Of a stretch of 58,438 nt of DNA, positions 4,897 through 26,567 are shown piece after piece. The stretch is taken from contig LFCP01000007.1 of the NCBI GenBank assembly GCA_001189155.1, forward strand, positions 1-58,438, read 5' to 3'. The translations under genes were made by a program, and so were the position numbers. The stretch is from Parcubacteria bacterium C7867-006. Lineage in GTDB: Bacteria; Patescibacteriota; Minisyncoccia; Phycocordibacterales; DATDWN01. How positions within the stretch are numbered: the first letter of the stretch is position 1; every line of letters begins with the position of its first letter. The notes beneath the pieces were generated by a model. The model saw only the letters and a list, made by a program, of their open reading frames with translations, did no database searches and was not told the origin of the DNA.

Positions 4897-5785
4897 TTTC
4901 GTCTACTATTTTTCCGTACTCATCTAGCAGTACAACATCTTCTCTAGTATTTTTCCAAAGATGCTCACTTCGTTTCAGGTAGACTCGCCAGTCTTTTTGG
5001 TAGAAGTCTTGGTCGTTTTTGTGGGTATCAACACATGCTGGGTAATTTATTTTTTTGTATATAAAGTCTATACACTCAGCACTCCATTTCTGAGAGCTAG
5101 CTGGTAGAGGGTTTGTTTGAATTCTGCAAGACGGCATTGAGTTTATAAAATCAAAACAAGAGTCGTTATATACAGTTTTGGGTATAGAAGATAGGTTTTC
5201 ATTTCTTGGTGCAGGGCAATAGCCACCAATATACGGTATAAAAGTTTGGAATTGATTTAAGTACCCAGAACATTTATTTACTTTAAAACTCGCTCCGTTT
5301 GGAGAAATACCTGTTATTAAATATAAAGTTTCGTTCGCAGAAAGATATATATCTTGTTCTGAATTTATACTGTTTGCAAAAAATAGGTATGAGGCTTGTG
5401 GTATTTTTACACTTACTCCGCTAGACAGACTCTTTAAGGTCCAACCTGTAATTTTTATAGATGTTGTTGCTGTGCTGTTTACGTGTATTGATATGTATTC
5501 TTTAGATGGATCACTAGAGTGATTTATGAAGTAAAGATCTACTATATTTTTATATCTAGATTGTGTTTTTTTAGCTTCTTCTATAGCAACTTGTTTTTTA
5601 AGTTCATCTACTTTGTATTTTGTATCTGTTATCTGGCGTTGAATGTCTGCTTGCTGTTGTGCTGGAGTTTTTGGAGTAGGAGAAAAAAGACTTCCGCCCT
5701 TGCTTGTGCTTTCAGTTCCACCAACTAGCAAAACAGCTAGTATTATGACTATTATCATAAGGCCAGAATTATTGCTTTTTCCCAT
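4886..5785 (-). CDS. Membrane-anchored extracellular protein with a lamin-tail-like (LTD) domain
   Basis: 299 aa. N-terminal TM anchor, coiled-coil segment, then the pattern IKITGWTLKS...IYLSANETLYLITG that is typical of LTD. Confidence 0.55.
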   Translation of the reverse strand: MGKSNNSGLMIIVIILAVLLVGGTESTSKGGSLFSPTPKTPAQQQADIQRQITDTKYKVDELKKQVAIEEAKKTQSRYKNIVDLYFINHSSDPSKEYISIHVNSTATTSIKITGWTLKSLSSGVSVKIPQASYLFFANSINSEQDIYLSANETLYLITGISPNGASFKVNKCSGYLNQFQTFIPYIGGYCPAPRNENLSSIPKTVYNDSCFDFINSMPSCRIQTNPLPASSQKWSAECIDFIYKKINYPACVDTHKNDQDFYQKDWRVYLKRSEHLWKNTREDVVLLDEYGKIVDEIKY

Positions 5786-5805
5786 ATCTATATTCTACTA
5801 CAAAA

Positions 5806-6705
5806 TTATTTTTGATGCGTGTTGCAAAAATGTGCACTTCTACCACCAATTATTTTTCTTTGTATTACTCCATCACACCCCCTTTTCAAACATTTTTGTT
5901 TTACTCTTCTGTAAACTTTGTGAGCGTTCTGGAAGTTTCCTTTTTCCCCATAAATATTTCTATAGTCAGACATTGAGTCTCCACCCATTTTAATAGAGTG
6001 TTCCAGTATTTCTCCTGTGGCTTTCCATATGTCTTTTATTTCTTTATCCATTAAACTCCCCGGTTTTCTTTCTGGGTGAATGTTTGCGGTCCAGAGTATT
6101 TCGTCAGAATATATGTTTCCAATACCTGCTATTACACTCTGGTCCATTAAAACAGTTTTTATATCCCAGTTTGGTTTGGTCAGAATCTGTTTTTTCAAAG
6201 TTTCTTTTGAAAGGTTATCTAGAGGTTCTGGCCCAAGTCCAACTAGGTCTATGTGAGAGTTCTTTTTATCTGTCTCAAACATTAAAACTTTTGCAAATTT
6301 TCTCATATCTGAAAATGCTAAAGATTTTCCGTTTGATAGGTTGAATATAAGATGGATAAATTTATTGAACGGATCAGATAGGAGAGGAGCATCACTTTTC
6401 CATTTTTTACCATCCCACTCGTATTTACCATACAAAAGGTGCCCGGTCATTTTCATATGAATCAAAACAGTTTTGTTGTTAGTAAAATGTATCAATACAT
6501 TTTTTCCTCTTCTTTCTGCTGACTTAAATTTTTCTCCCATGAGCTCATTTCTGAATTTTCCAAAGTATTTTTTATTTTTTATATTGTCAGTTCTTTTGTT
6601 TGCAGTTTTTATATAGTAATCAGACCACACATCTTTGATGGTAAGTTTTGGCATAACCTCATTAAGTCCATTAACCGTTGTTGTTACTTCTGGTAGCTCA
6701 GGCAT
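5806..6705 (-). CDS. mutM: Formamidopyrimidine-DNA glycosylase / Fpg-Nei family
   Basis: Starts with MPELPEV (catalytic Pro2, Glu3). H2TH region and C-terminal Cys-rich zinc-finger-like segment are present. Confidence 0.9.
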   Translation of the reverse strand: MPELPEVTTTVNGLNEVMPKLTIKDVWSDYYIKTANKRTDNIKNKKYFGKFRNELMGEKFKSAERRGKNVLIHFTNNKTVLIHMKMTGHLLYGKYEWDGKKWKSDAPLLSDPFNKFIHLIFNLSNGKSLAFSDMRKFAKVLMFETDKKNSHIDLVGLGPEPLDNLSKETLKKQILTKPNWDIKTVLMDQSVIAGIGNIYSDEILWTANIHPERKPGSLMDKEIKDIWKATGEILEHSIKMGGDSMSDYRNIYGEKGNFQNAHKVYRRVKQKCLKRGCDGVIQRKIIGGRSAHFCNTHQK

Positions 6706-22412: not shown

Positions 22413-22464
22413 GTTATTTCAGATAATACTTTGTTTCAGAACAGTGTTCTTGAAAGGAGATTGA

Positions 22465-23106
22465 ATGGAAGTGAATAAATCGGATTGGACTTTGAAATCC
22501 ATCCTCAAGGCAAAACACGGGGTTACTGAGAAGTACATCCCGAACCTTGATGATCTGAAGAAGATCGTCGAGGCGGCAAAGCAGGGTGGCTACAAGGTCG
22601 GACTTACTCAGGGCGTCTACGACATGTTCCATGTCGGCCATGGACGTTACCTCGAGGAGGCCAGTACTCATGCGGACATCCTCATCGTCGGAGTGGACTC
22701 AGACGAGCTCACACGGTCGATGAAAGGTCCCACTCGACCATTCGACACCTTCGAGGAGAGGATTGAGATTTTGGCGATGCTCTCCTGCGTTCACGTCATC
22801 GTTAAGCGTGATGTCGACCAGCACATGTACGATCTCATCAAGCTCGTCAAGCCTGATGTTCTCGTGATGTCGCAGACGACTCGCACTTTCGGTGATGAGG
22901 ACAAACGTGTTCTGAACGAGTACTGCGGTACCATCAGACATCTCGAAGCCAAAGCAGCAACGTCAACAACGGCGAAATTGCGCCGTCTCAAGATTGAGGG
23001 AATTACACCTTTTTCGATTGCGGTGAAACAGAAAGTCACCGAGTTCGCAGAAGACGTGATCTCTCTCGTCGAGTCTTCGTTGAAAGGGGAAACTGATGGG
23101 CAGTAA
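22465..23106 (+). CDS. Cytidylyltransferase-fold nucleotidyltransferase (TagD / RfaE domain II-like); GC-rich island gene 1
   Basis: 213 aa. GVYDMFHVGHGRYLEEA is the HxGH motif, followed by ILIVGVDSDE and a C-terminal ATSTTAKL that resembles the RTxGISTT motif. Confidence 0.8.
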   Translation: MEVNKSDWTLKSILKAKHGVTEKYIPNLDDLKKIVEAAKQGGYKVGLTQGVYDMFHVGHGRYLEEASTHADILIVGVDSDELTRSMKGPTRPFDTFEERIEILAMLSCVHVIVKRDVDQHMYDLIKLVKPDVLVMSQTTRTFGDEDKRVLNEYCGTIRHLEAKAATSTTAKLRRLKIEGITPFSIAVKQKVTEFAEDVISLVESSLKGETDGQ

Positions 23107-23986
23107 CCTCATCGGTTACATTCCAACTCTGAACCAGCGTCACCTGAGCTGGTTCGAGCGTCACCCTCGGAGTAAGCTTTTTCTTGTCACACAGAAAATG
23201 GCAGAGGAGCTTCTCCCTCGCCTTGCTAGAAATATGGCGGGGGTTCCGACTCAGGCGATGGAAACAATGATCAAGTCGCTTGGGGTGGTGGAAGATGTTT
23301 GTTTGTTTGAGCCTGATGAGGACAGCCCTCGTCTAGTCTCACACAAGCAGAACCATCCTTTTGGTGCATCCGGTTGGAAAAGCTGGGTGTTGCCGGACGA
23401 AGATATCTCACATATCGTCGCTCAGAAATACTTGTACCCGGCGGATAAAACTGCTGAGTTCGAGATGATCTGGGCCCGGTGGGATATGACGGCGGTGCAC
23501 AAAGCACAGCCGATCATTCCTGATGTTGTAGTTTCAAGCTCTCCTCTGGACATCATCAGAATGAGAGCTGCACAGCGGGAAGCAATCAAAAGTCCCGACT
23601 GGTGGAGACAGATAGCAGCTGCTGCGTGGCTCGACGACGAGTGTATCGCAGTTGCTTGCAACACCCACATGCCCAACGAGTACGAAACGTACATCTTCGG
23701 CGACCCACGGCTTAACGTAGACGCGGGTCAACCCGGTAGGTACGTTGCTCTCCATGCTGAGCGAGCGGTAATTGCTCAGTGTGCTAGACGTAAGGGAATC
23801 GGACTCGAGGGTGCATCACTCTATGTTACGACATTTCCGTGCGAAGACTGTGCACGTGAAATTCGCGAGGCTGGAGTGAAGAAAGTGTTCTTTGAATCTG
23901 GTTACTCGGTCCTAAATGCGCAAGATGTTCTACGTTCGCGTGGTATCGAGATCATCCAGGTAGTCAGAACCCCCACCGTCGCGTAA
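23096..23986 (+). CDS. Fusion of an unknown N-terminal domain (~165 aa) with a dCMP/cytidine deaminase zinc-binding domain; island gene 2
   Basis: 296 aa. The C-terminal half has HAERAVI ... TFPCEDCAREI (HAE / PCxxC zinc motifs). The start overlaps the stop of gene 1 by 11 nt. Confidence 0.8.
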   Translation: MGSNLIGYIPTLNQRHLSWFERHPRSKLFLVTQKMAEELLPRLARNMAGVPTQAMETMIKSLGVVEDVCLFEPDEDSPRLVSHKQNHPFGASGWKSWVLPDEDISHIVAQKYLYPADKTAEFEMIWARWDMTAVHKAQPIIPDVVVSSSPLDIIRMRAAQREAIKSPDWWRQIAAAAWLDDECIAVACNTHMPNEYETYIFGDPRLNVDAGQPGRYVALHAERAVIAQCARRKGIGLEGASLYVTTFPCEDCAREIREAGVKKVFFESGYSVLNAQDVLRSRGIEIIQVVRTPTVA

Positions 23987-24006
23987 GCGACGGTGGGGGG
24001 TTTTTA
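23970..24006. terminator. GC-rich bidirectional terminator between the convergent island operons
   Basis: CCCCCACCGTCGC-GTAA-GCGACGGTGGGGG followed by TTTTTA. The loop contains the stop codon of gene 2. Confidence 0.8.
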
Positions 24007-24462
24007 TTTCTTCTTGAAACCGACAGGTGCGACGATGAGGTCCTCGAGTTTGTTCTTCTCGTCGCCAACCTTCTCGCCACCTACGATTACATGAAAGTGC
24101 AAGTGGTCAATGGTAGCTGCAGTGCGACGCATATTGCCTGAGCGCACAAACACCGAGAAACCATCGAGTTCGAATCTGTTCTTGATCCACTCAACGGCTT
24201 CAAAGAGAGCGAGCTTTTCGTGAGTCGAAAGTTCTCGAATCTCCGTGACGTGGCGCTGGGCCACAACGAGGTAGTGATGTTCCGCCCCGTTGTATGGGTA
24301 GTCGTTCGGCTTCACGAACCAGAAAGGATTCTCCCATATTTTGCCTGAAGCTCCTCTGGAAGTGAAGTCGATGCAGAAGAAGCACTCATTCTTCTTCTCT
24401 GCCTCTTGCATCCGGGCGACCTGCTCGGAATGTCTAGCGTTGTCTATCTGCATTTTTGCCAA
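24004..24462 (-). CDS. HIT-family (histidine triad) nucleotide hydrolase/transferase; island gene 3
   Basis: 152 aa with an HLHFHVI triad and an N-terminal CFFC motif. Confidence 0.8.
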   Translation of the reverse strand: MAKMQIDNARHSEQVARMQEAEKKNECFFCIDFTSRGASGKIWENPFWFVKPNDYPYNGAEHHYLVVAQRHVTEIRELSTHEKLALFEAVEWIKNRFELDGFSVFVRSGNMRRTAATIDHLHFHVIVGGEKVGDEKNKLEDLIVAPVGFKKK

Positions 24463-24554
24463 TCGTCACCTCTTCTAGAGCCTTTCTATCATTTTTACAA
24501 AAAAAGACAAGCCGTCCTGGGTTACGCCGGGACGGCTTGGTTGTTGATGTTGGA

Positions 24555-25478
24555 CTATGTCGTGACAGGGATCTTCGGCATCGACGGTCCTGACTGGTAG
24601 TCCTCCAGACGAAGATGTTCAGGCCTGAAATCGAAGAGACTTTCGACCTTTTTGCCTTCTTCTGTGAGATAGACACTCGGGAACCGGTACGACGGTCGCC
24701 TCACGAGTTCTTTCACGTTCTCCAGCTGATCTTCGTAGAAGTGACTGTCGTGGGTTGCATGGATGAGCATGTACGGTTCAAGACCGAGAACATGTGCAAT
24801 CATCACCGTGAGTGCCGCGTACTGGATGGTGTTCGACGGAACGCCGATAGGGAAGTCTGCTGATCTCTGATCCATCCTGAGAGTCAGCTTTCCATCGACG
24901 ACGTACATCTCCACATCTCCATGACATGGAGCGACGATGACTTTCCGTTCCTTGCCAGTGTAGCCGATGGTGTAGTGGGGCAACCAGCTCGTGATCTTGT
25001 GTGTTGTCACATCCGGTCTTTCTTTCATCTGCCTCAGCACCTCCTTGAATTGATTGTAGGTGCTACCGTCTGGCGCGATGTACTGGAAGGCCCCGCCGTA
25101 GGATCCAGGTCCCAGGTCAGGGTATTCCAAACCGAAGTGTGCACACTTATCTTGTGTTGCCCACTGCTTGAGCCACCACTTCACACCCCAGACGTCGGCA
25201 AGAGCCTTGGCGTCACGCACTCCGTTGATGAACGCGAGGAGTTCACCAATCGGCGTCATCCAGAATGCGGAGATGTCCCGTTCCGTCATGACAGGAAAGC
25301 CATGCCGGAGGTTGAAGACCATCGGAGAGAGCGTTTTCACGCTGTATCTTCCGGTCGTCTGAAAGGGGTTTTTGGTCAAAACCCCTGGGCGACGAATCCG
25401 TCGCAGAATCTGATTCATGCGGTTCTTGTACTGAGTGTTGACTGCGCGCTGTTCCAGCGGCAGATATTTCGGATCCAT
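24555..25478 (-). CDS. Thymidylate synthase (ThyA) family enzyme, divergent; island gene 4
   Basis: 307 aa with APCHG (catalytic Cys), DQRSADFPIGVPSNTIQY and DSHFY, all matching ThyA core motifs. Confidence 0.8.
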   Translation of the reverse strand: MDPKYLPLEQRAVNTQYKNRMNQILRRIRRPGVLTKNPFQTTGRYSVKTLSPMVFNLRHGFPVMTERDISAFWMTPIGELLAFINGVRDAKALADVWGVKWWLKQWATQDKCAHFGLEYPDLGPGSYGGAFQYIAPDGSTYNQFKEVLRQMKERPDVTTHKITSWLPHYTIGYTGKERKVIVAPCHGDVEMYVVDGKLTLRMDQRSADFPIGVPSNTIQYAALTVMIAHVLGLEPYMLIHATHDSHFYEDQLENVKELVRRPSYRFPSVYLTEEGKKVESLFDFRPEHLRLEDYQSGPSMPKIPVTT

Positions 25479-25583
25479 TCTTTAGTCCTTTCTAAGGTAC
25501 GAACCTATGCTGATACTACTTACTATGGTATTTCTCGTCAAATGACGAGGCCGCACAGATGTGCGGCCTGACCCAGATGATTT

Positions 25584-26081
25584 TCAGTCTCTGGTATATT
25601 CAACGACAGAGAAGGGGAAGAAATTCTTCTCGTCCACCTCTTGGTTGAAGAGTGTTTCCGCATTCCAGTTTCCTGGCATGGGAGGAAAGAACGTGTCTCC
25701 TTCGATGAGGGAGAATAGGTGGGTGACGATGAGTCTTGATGTGTAGGGCATCATCAAGCGGTAGATTTCTGCACCGCCAATGATGAAGACTTCATCTCGC
25801 AGTTCGGCCAGTCGCAGAACTTCATCGCGATGGTGAAGAACGAGACAGTCTGGTTGGGAGTAGTTTGAATCCCTTGTGAGGATTACATTTTCTCTTTCAG
25901 GAAGGGGTTTGAATCTGGCGGGGATTGAGTCGAAGGTTTTCCGACCCATGACTACAGTCTTATTCATGGTCACTTTCTTGAAGTGGTCCATGTCGGCACG
26001 GAGTTTTCCTGCCCACGGCAGGTTTCCGTTTTTGCCGATTACTCCAAGTCGCGCCATCGCGACGATCATTGTGATTTTCAT
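25584..26081 (-). CDS. folA: Dihydrofolate reductase; island gene 5
   Basis: 165 aa with IVAMARLGVIGKNGNLPW, VVMGRKTFDSI and FIIGGAEIY. Confidence 0.9.
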   Translation of the reverse strand: MKITMIVAMARLGVIGKNGNLPWAGKLRADMDHFKKVTMNKTVVMGRKTFDSIPARFKPLPERENVILTRDSNYSQPDCLVLHHRDEVLRLAELRDEVFIIGGAEIYRLMMPYTSRLIVTHLFSLIEGDTFFPPMPGNWNAETLFNQEVDEKNFFPFSVVEYTRD

Positions 26082-26144
26082 CGTGTCCTCTCTGGGCTCG
26101 ATATTATACTTTATAAACTACTGGGTCAATGCTATTATTTAAAA

Positions 26145-26567
26145 ATGATTTTAAAGGTTAAAAGGCTTGAGTCTGATGCGATTTTACCAAGTTATGCTCA
26201 TCCAGGTGATGCAGGTTTAGATATATATTCTGGTGAAGATTTAACTCTAGCTCCAGGAGAATCAGGAAAAGTAAAAACAGGTGTGTCATTAGAAATTCAA
26301 GATGGTTTCGTCGGTCTTGTTTGGGATAAAAGCGGTCTTTCAATAAATCATGGTATAAAGACATTGGGTGGTGTAGTTGATTCTGGGTACAGAGGAGAAA
26401 TTATGATAGGAGTGATAAATCTTGGTAAAGAGTCATACACGTTTGAAAAAGGTCACAAAGTAGCTCAAATGTTAATTCAAAAAATTGAAAGGGTAGAAGT
26501 CATCGAGTCAGATGAATTAAATGATACAAGTAGAGGAGTTGGAGGTTTTGGTAGTACTGGTAAATAG
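26145..26567 (+). CDS. dut: dUTP diphosphatase (trimeric dUTPase)
   Basis: The ATG at 26145 gives MILKVKRL... with motifs AGLDI, GVVDSGYRGEI and SRGVGGFGSTG. The tracked ORF start at 25983 lies in the GC-rich region antisense to folA. Confidence 0.92.
   Translation: MILKVKRLESDAILPSYAHPGDAGLDIYSGEDLTLAPGESGKVKTGVSLEIQDGFVGLVWDKSGLSINHGIKTLGGVVDSGYRGEIMIGVINLGKESYTFEKGHKVAQMLIQKIERVEVIESDELNDTSRGVGGFGSTGK

Follow-up and report, generated by a model that had tools for sequence, protein, structure and literature searches.

Here, we describe a gene for a thymidylate synthase (ThyA) in Parcubacteria bacterium C7867-006, a member of the Patescibacteria (candidate phyla radiation, CPR). The gene, called the thyA ORF (open reading frame) below, lies in a stretch of 58,438 nucleotides (the window), which is contig C4 of a 674-kb genome that is 98% complete. 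It probably encodes the organism's functional thymidylate synthase, which would convert deoxyuridine monophosphate (dUMP) and methylene-tetrahydrofolate (CH2-THF) to thymidine monophosphate (dTMP) and dihydrofolate (DHF), and it appears to belong to a Patescibacteria-specific clade with a rebuilt 5'-phosphate clamp. The four-arginine phosphate clamp of thymidylate synthase (TS) is a textbook invariant and a model for the charge networks that bind substrates, and the enzyme itself is a drug target. To judge from the sequences, this grip has most likely been rebuilt, not lost, in a large clade of CPR ThyA proteins.

By its profile matches, fold, catalytic network, uracil and 3'-OH ligands and folate site, the thyA ORF is a member of the ThyA family. 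It matched the PF00303 profile (Thymidylat_synt) with an E value of 1.1e-48 and 166 bits (cut-off 24.3), and it exceeded the cut-off of the NCBIfam thymidylate synthase equivalog TIGR03284 (129 bits, cut-off 108.35). Its top sequence matches in the PDB are thymidylate synthases, mainly eukaryotic ones (E 5e-32, ~30% identity). An AlphaFold2 (AF2) model made with 112 homologues reached a predicted local distance difference test score (pLDDT) of 96.4 and a predicted TM score (pTM) of 0.94, and the best 50 Foldseek matches of this model in the PDB were all TS (E ~1e-22; target TM 0.8–0.9). Thus, the profile alignment and the structure prediction, which a preliminary description of this DNA had proposed as checks, both place the protein in the ThyA family.

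Residues were mapped onto E. coli ThyA (reference sequence identical to PDB 1AOB); phmmer alignments to solved TS agreed with MAFFT alignments to the E. coli enzyme. Three-letter names below refer to E. coli numbering and one-letter names to the thyA ORF, unless stated otherwise. The catalytic elements that the preliminary description had read by eye as conserved are all kept: the catalytic Cys (C185), Arg166 and Asp169 (R205 and D208), the uracil-specifying Asn177 (N216), Glu58 (E79) and the DSHFY/DTHLY motif with H246 and Y248, which correspond to the 3'-OH ligands His207 and Tyr209. Y127 corresponds to Tyr94, and C185, H186, E79, Y127 and D208 are kept in 119–120 of 120 homologues. Glu58, Trp80, Tyr94, Cys146, His147, Gln165, Arg166 and Asp169 are invariant among the homologues, and Trp83, Ser167, Asn177 and Tyr209 are near-invariant; the folate-site residues Trp80 and Trp83 are conserved in 119/120. 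At the C-terminus, KIPVTT aligns with KAPVAI of E. coli, with the same length. Phe176 is replaced by Ser in the thyA ORF, therefore the p-aminobenzoate (PABA) pocket differs.

The canonical clamp holds the dUMP phosphate with Arg21, Arg166 and two arginines from the partner subunit, Arg126' and Arg127'. This set is not found in the thyA ORF, in which Arg21 is replaced by F39, Arg126 by T158 and Arg127 by T159, so that R205 (Arg166) alone stands where the canonical clamp has it. The loss of three arginines, as first reported, was confirmed by phmmer and MAFFT alignments and by inspection of the codons. An arginine at a shifted position, which the preliminary description had named as evidence against its reading, did turn up: Arg126' appears to be replaced by a relocated arginine, R44. 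R44 is the 'GR' arginine of the QTTGRY motif and aligns without gaps to E. coli Thr26.

A homologue search gave 796 relatives at E <= 1e-10, the closest being annotated as Minisyncoccia, Patescibacteria and Saccharimonadia, and an exhaustive search of representatives gave 47 clusters (50% identity) at E <= 1e-30 before canonical TS start. In a maximum likelihood (ML) tree, 143 full-length members formed one clade apart from canonical TS (SH-aLRT 100). The remodelled phosphate pocket, which had been suspected from the single sequence, is a conserved trait of this clade. Position 127 is Thr in 140/143 members and Ser in the other 3, position 128 is His in 143/143, and Arg166 is kept in 142/143; Arg21 is retained only in a 'TRQGP' subgroup (34/143). 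Three canonical clamp arginines are present in 39 members, two in 63, one in 41 and all four in none. Moreover, the clade has additions of its own. The span from Trp133 to Cys146 counts 21 residues in 132/143 members compared to 14 in E. coli, with a mean of ~3 basic residues, and an N-terminal extension of 13 residues carries a conserved Tyr5 and Arg11 (numbered as in the thyA ORF; its first 10 residues are modelled with a pLDDT of 94). Further signatures are K48R, I79W, F176S and GPGSYG in place of GPVYG.

The residue at position 126 and the loop position of R44 are closely tied. Among the 143 members, 113 carry only Arg/Lys126, 29 only the loop Arg, none carries both and one carries neither (Fisher p 2e-29). 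Members with neither Arg nor Lys at position 126 have Q-x-x-G-R in the N-terminal loop (all but one of the 143 members follow this rule); when Arg126 is present, the loop position is Thr or Ala. Six changes of each trait were counted on an ML tree for which the two trait columns had been masked, and four independent pairs of changes fall on well-supported branches, all of them reciprocal; the switch amounts to at least 4–6 independent events. A single origin of the 29 loop-Arg sequences was rejected (approximately unbiased (AU) test, p 1e-114, at a cost of 226 log-likelihood units). This mutual exclusion and the repeated switches indicate that the clamp arginine has moved, and such a reciprocal exchange would be expected of two side chains with one site in common. 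The AF2 model places both R44 and T158/T159 where beta-strands begin, at their N-terminal ends (E44-47 and E159-162); the equivalents of these strands in TS structures presumably lie in the dimer-interface sheet.

We propose that R44 reaches, from the same subunit, the phosphate site that Arg126' reaches from the partner subunit; the charge of Arg126' would be supplied from position 126 or from the N-loop arginine, never from both. The rest of the phosphate site may be formed by H160 and K161, by the basic 7-residue insertion and/or by R11 of the N-terminal extension. As sources of dUMP, we propose the neighbouring dUTPase and the dCMP-type deaminase encoded nearby, and the adjacent dihydrofolate reductase (DHFR) would recycle DHF.

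Arg21 (L. casei Arg23) reportedly tolerated substitution in replacement-set mutagenesis said to be the work of Kawase in 2000. Position 127 is tolerant as well: L. casei Arg179' mutants remain active, and the TS of Vibrio parahaemolyticus (VpTS), with a natural R127G, is active with a raised Km (PMC6005164). Thus, the four-arginine clamp is characteristic of ThyA, not strictly defining. Given that the canonical clamp is missing and that the relocated R44 covaries with position 126, we file the thyA ORF as a variant clade of ThyA and not as a canonical member.

The genomic setting bears on the reaction itself. The thyA ORF is the only ThyA gene in the genome, and no ThyX was found there. It forms part of a five-gene cassette, together with genes for a nucleotidyltransferase (NTase), a two-domain deaminase, a HIT-family protein and DHFR (folA), which was found between rplK and dut/argS in 13 relatives that represent several families of the order. 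In congeners that have no cassette, this rplK-argS locus is occupied by genes for a 450-aa ThyX and the thymidylate kinase Tmk, with or without serine hydroxymethyltransferase (SHMT) (Pfam-confirmed), therefore the two modules are functional alternatives for thymidylate. In two genomes of family f54 (G087 and G111), genes for Tmk, ThyA, DHFR and HIT run in the same direction, with the matches to tmk and thyA ~160 bp apart, which implies that dTMP is the product of ThyA. In a third genome (G121), tmk lies ~8 kb from thyA; all three have the full cassette. Moreover, folA was found in nearly all cassette copies examined, and folA genes of CPR origin rescue E. coli dfolA (PMC11974145). Because the enzyme is the sole TS, alternates with thyX-tmk, follows tmk in a run in other lineages and is accompanied by a folA of a functional CPR type, the ordinary conversion of dUMP to dTMP is best supported.

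The preliminary description had gone from the missing arginines to a pyrimidine substrate other than dUMP. This step was not supported, since R44 appears to replace Arg126', position 127 is tolerant, the protein is the sole TS, the cassette alternates with thyX-tmk, tmk lies upstream of thyA in relatives and dut is adjacent. Its view that the reaction is a reductive methylation and not a hydroxymethylation is supported by the folA linkage and by the intact folate and C-terminal residues.

Several points weigh against an ordinary thymidylate synthase. Only one canonical clamp arginine is left in the thyA ORF, and E. coli Arg126 mutants show impaired catalysis (PMC6005164). We infer the contact of R44 with the phosphate from covariation and from its place at the start of a strand, and the nearness of H160 or R11 from arguments of the same kind. 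The folate pocket is altered in the clade (F176S, I79W, K48R), and no SHMT or formate-tetrahydrofolate (THF) ligase was found in the genome to reload THF. The constant NTase, the extra-domain deaminase and the HIT protein are superfluous for the canonical route. A literature search returned no paper on the biochemistry of CPR ThyA, on the ThyA clade or on its cassette. Finally, Tmk was found above the Pfam cut-off in 0/14 cassette genomes vs 14/15 genomes with ThyX or a canonical-type ThyA, among 41 relatives (Fisher p 2e-7). In a 401-genome sample of the phylum, it was present in 5/12 cassette genomes and in 285/389 others (p 0.02).

The constant NTase and HIT genes and the missing Tmk therefore keep alive the reading that ThyA methylates a 5'-extended or carrier-linked substrate (dUDP-X, a dinucleoside diphosphate or dUDP/dUTP), which we consider unlikely. 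The NTase would load a deoxycytidylyl group, the deaminase and ThyA would act on the conjugate, and the HIT protein would free dTMP, dTDP or dTTP, leaving Tmk unneeded; this scheme is similarly doubtful. Attention had already been drawn to the neighbouring NTase and HIT genes in the preliminary description, rightly so, as both are conserved partners in every cassette examined, in several CPR classes. The five genes are held together across CPR classes, the NTase and deaminase genes overlap, and an enzyme that transfers nucleoside monophosphates to phosphate is among the nearest solved relatives of the HIT protein. The small residues at positions 126' and 127' and the basic insertion beside the catalytic Cys could together make room for a longer 5' pocket and form its lining. 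The absence of Tmk, in 14/14 cassette relatives and, in the phylum sample, in 7/12 cassette vs 104/389 other genomes, would also fit.

Against such a substrate, the Arg126/R44 toggle points to selection that keeps one arginine fixed at the phosphate site, which is what an ordinary monoester would call for. Moreover, tmk lies directly upstream of thyA (G087, G111) or ~8 kb away (G121) in genomes with the full cassette, dut, a source of free dUMP, is adjacent to or inside the cluster, and the module is interchangeable with thyX-tmk at one locus. The N-terminal domain of the deaminase has no detectable similarity to NTase (hhalign probability 0.3%), and, when a concatenated query was used to look for an NTase-deaminase-HIT fusion, none was recovered, only 470-aa proteins with the NTase domain behind an unassigned N-terminal region. 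The broader proposal, that the cassette is an undescribed kinase-free route to thymidine nucleotides via a 5'-nucleotidylated or 5'-extended deoxypyrimidine, from which the HIT protein would free dTDP or dTTP by phosphorolysis or pyrophosphorolysis, is likewise improbable; if true, it would explain the missing thymidylate kinase in cassette genomes of this order.

Other candidates for the Tmk gap were examined in the whole genome and its relatives. No SHMT, formate-THF ligase, Tmk, ThyX or Tdk/dNK/Gmk/Cmk-like P-loop kinase was detected in the genome, and a Walker-A scan of it gave no Tdk- or dNK-like P-loop ORF; it holds two ADK-family kinases and a FolD-like gene (C1:149382-150107). The second ADK-family kinase was rejected as the missing dTMP kinase, with an ortholog in 1/40 relatives and no tracking of the cassette. 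Weak PF02223 matches in cassette genomes proved to be an ordinary Adk-like kinase or a dNK-like protein. That the cassette simply replaces Tmk is weakened by the three genomes with both (G087, G111 and G121). An anticorrelation of SHMT with the cassette was also rejected, as SHMT occurs in 6/14 cassette genomes, often adjacent to it.

A pyrimidine hydroxymethylase, or another non-reductive C5 transferase of the T4 gp42, SPO1 or MilA type serving a modified base or a nucleoside natural product, is very improbable. The clade is a divergent one within the ThyA fold and its folate pocket is altered (F176S, I79W), which would fit. However, N216 keeps the Asn of position 177 (119/120 homologues) where the cytosine-specific enzymes have Asp, and the C-terminal closing segment is intact. 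DHFR, which is needed only if DHF is produced, is linked nearly throughout, and ThyA is the sole possible thymidylate source in the genome. In addition, the PHROG matches (4/4) are annotated as thymidylate synthase, and the cassette contains no glycosyltransferase, kinase or other base-modification gene. Nor does the thyA ORF have the Asp177, the independence of DHFR or the phage or natural-product context of dCMP and CMP hydroxymethylases. It is equally hard to credit that the protein is a weak or inactive relic in another role (regulation or nucleotide binding) in a cell fed with thymidine nucleotides by its host: CPR bacteria do scavenge nucleotides, a ThyA of this type is missing from about half of the congeners, and Tmk, SHMT and formate-THF ligase were not found in the genome, but every catalytic residue is kept over hundreds of sequences (45–78% identity among close members), a compensating relocation of the arginine was selected repeatedly, and the gene is co-conserved with a type of DHFR shown to be functional in CPR.

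Features of the window that bear on the thyA ORF and its cassette (position 1 is the first letter of the window; a dot marks features given without a strand)
Feature	Position	Strand	Basis or remarks
CPR-type ThyA (thymidylate synthase) coding sequence, 307 aa	24555..25478	-	PF00303, TIGR03284, AF2, Foldseek
R11 in the clade-specific N-terminal extension, absent from canonical TS	25446..25448	-	92% conserved, mostly gap in canonical TS
F39 at the E. coli Arg21 position	25362..25364	-	ungapped phmmer alignment of KNPFQTTGRYS to R-DDRTGTGTIS
Codon of R44, arginine of the N-terminal loop aligned to E. coli Thr26; putative relocated counterpart of Arg126'	25347..25349	-	
T158-T159-H160-K161 at E. 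coli Arg126-Arg127-Ile128-Ile129	24996..25007	-	codons checked
Segment W165 to C185 with the clade-specific 7-residue Lys/Arg-rich insertion (LPHYTIGYTGKERKVIVAP)	24927..24983	-	
C185-H186, catalytic Cys146-His147	24921..24926	-	invariant in 120/120 homologues; codons checked
Q204-R205-S206-A207-D208, E. coli Q165-R166-S167-C168-D169, retained phosphate and catalytic block	24855..24869	-	(near-)invariant in the first 120 homologues
S215-N216: N216, uracil-specifying Asn177; S215 replaces folate-pocket Phe176	24831..24836	-	Asn in 119/120; Ser in 108/120
GC-rich block, boundaries exactly those of the five-gene cassette	22450..26100	.	~52% vs ~35%
Cytidylyltransferase-like NTase, HVGH motif	22465..23106	+	PF01467; 3' end overlaps deaminase start by 11 nt
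Two-domain deaminase: 150-aa alpha/beta N-terminal domain and dCMP-deaminase domain	23096..23986	+	PF00383
13-bp GC-rich hairpin between the convergent deaminase and HIT genes, probable shared terminator	23970..23999	.	
HIT-family protein downstream of thyA	24004..24462	-	PF01230, PF11969; intact HLHFH and CxxC
folA, dihydrofolate reductase, directly upstream of thyA	25584..26081	-	PF00186, E 4.8e-50
dut (dUTPase), native-GC neighbour able to supply dUMP	26145..26567	+	PF00692; TIGR00576, 147 bits

Among the partners of ThyA, the NTase keeps the HxGH motif and matched TIGR02199 (rfaE domain II, heptose-1-phosphate adenylyltransferase) with an E value of 1e-28, although its score falls below the cut-off of that model. 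Its nearest PDB entry is 5X9Q, a putative cytidylyltransferase, and an ethanolamine-phosphate cytidylyltransferase is also among its closest relatives. In two 470-aa proteins from other metagenomes (P0404 and P0413), a 300-aa N-terminal region free of Pfam matches is fused to a close NTase homologue; this architecture recalls HldE (kinase plus adenylyltransferase) and may hint at the acceptor substrate of the NTase. The C-terminal half of the deaminase matched dCMP deaminases in structure (Foldseek with an AF2 model). Its N-terminal domain (23096-23560, plus strand) gave no Pfam or PDB match with a 30-sequence profile, and Foldseek with the full model returned only deaminases; the hhalign comparison given above also ruled against a degenerate NTase copy. 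This domain is confidently predicted as alpha/beta, with invariant Y8, P10, N13, W19, R45, E102, S105, R128, D130 and M131. The public gene call of the deaminase (262 aa) begins 34 codons too late when compared to the homologues of 280–290 aa.

Among PDB sequences, the HIT protein came nearest, though weakly (E 2-3e-4), to 6AF2, a HIT-domain protein, and to 3ANO, an Ap-4-A phosphorylase that we take to be the mycobacterial Rv2613c enzyme. The third His of the motif varies among the HIT proteins of the cassettes (HxHxH, HxHxQ and HxHxN; loci L022, L026 and L043), the HxHxQ form being the hallmark of the transferase/phosphorylase (GalT) branch. Outside the cassette, dut adjoins it in many relatives. 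The spacer between folA and thyA (25479-25583) contains a GC-rich hairpin, GGCCGCACATCTGTGCGGCC, followed by a promoter-like TTGACG-17-TAGTAT, and a second GC-rich hairpin with a 13-bp stem follows the thyA stop codon (24508-24539). Flanked by these hairpins, thyA may therefore be transcribed or regulated apart from folA and the HIT gene.

The cassette is also present in distant CPR lineages and classes. We rejected the idea that it is an oddity of recent horizontal transfer, given its identical position in 13 relatives and its occurrence in those distant classes. In most relatives, the GC content of the cassette is 0.45–0.54 compared to 0.35–0.40 in the flanks (loci L014-L026 and L038-L039), and the ThyX-Tmk module at the same locus is GC-rich too (0.48–0.54 in G008 and G018). 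The ThyA tree does not follow taxonomy, as seen for the congener G002, which falls with family f54. This mismatch and the usually raised GC content suggest that the cassette has been exchanged in place, and the rplK-argS interval looks like a fixed address at which thymidylate modules of different sources are swapped. The congener ThyX proteins (L032:2172-3536 in G008 and L033:149-1492 in G001) are of ~450 aa, with the Thy1 domain at residues 55–250 and a C-terminal half of ~200 aa that has no Pfam match. On one contig of a metagenome from the Joint Genome Institute (JGI) (P0109, locus L027), genes for a T4-type deoxynucleoside monophosphate (dNMP) kinase (PF21448) and a NUDIX protein stand immediately upstream of the cassette (L027:2634-3398 and 5151-5921); the ThyA of this distant cassette is 45% identical to that of the window. 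The kinase and the NUDIX protein may be lineage-specific solutions for the phosphorylation step and for the step from dNTP to dNMP.

With one to three clamp arginines kept, the CPR clade offers a natural experiment in the rewiring of an active site across a dimer interface, in which an arginine of the partner subunit appears to have been relocated repeatedly to the N-terminal loop of the enzyme itself. The clade is, moreover, a marker of a conserved partnership of enzymes (NTase, two-domain deaminase and HIT protein) in the thymidylate synthesis of Patescibacteria. Solving how dUMP leads to dTTP in a genome with no detected Tmk, SHMT or thymidine kinase would fill a gap in our picture of CPR metabolism and could uncover new nucleotide chemistry.

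Compared to the canonical ThyA of E. coli, L. casei and human (EC 2.1.1.45), the CPR clade shares the fold, the catalytic, uracil and folate residues, the length of the C-terminus and the coupling to DHFR. It differs in being only ~30% identical and monophyletic apart from them, in having Thr or Ser at Arg127', in the usual loss of Arg21 and in an Arg126' that is interchangeable with an Arg at Thr26, and it adds the invariant His128, the 7-residue basic insertion, the 13-residue N-terminal extension and the F176S, I79W, K48R and GPGSYG signatures. The module of ThyX and Tmk, with or without SHMT, occupies the rplK-argS locus in congeners and leads to the same end product; however, ThyX is an unrelated, flavin-dependent enzyme that does not need DHFR, and its module includes the Tmk that is missing from the cassette of this order. 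The hydroxymethylases of the ThyA fold (T4 gp42, dUMP hydroxymethylases and MilA; PMC5175136) share the fold, the Cys-dependent C5 chemistry and the divergence from housekeeping TS. Their cytosine-specific members have Asp at position 177, and they release THF, are not coupled to DHFR and occur in phage or antibiotic clusters, whereas the ThyA of the window has Asn in a housekeeping rplK-argS locus.

The closest parallel in the clamp itself is the TS of the VAAP clade (VpTS), a natural ThyA without the Arg127' residue that is active although its Km for dUMP is raised, and in which its authors saw the first case of a clamp arginine lost in nature (PMC6005164). In VpTS, the loss is confined to Arg127', which is Gly, and Arg21, Arg126' and Arg166 are retained. 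The thyA ORF does not have this combination of Gly127' with the other three arginines; the CPR clade loses two or three of the canonical positions and appears to relocate one. Moreover, the VAAP clade is gammaproteobacterial, whereas the CPR clade is separate from it, far larger and more diverse.

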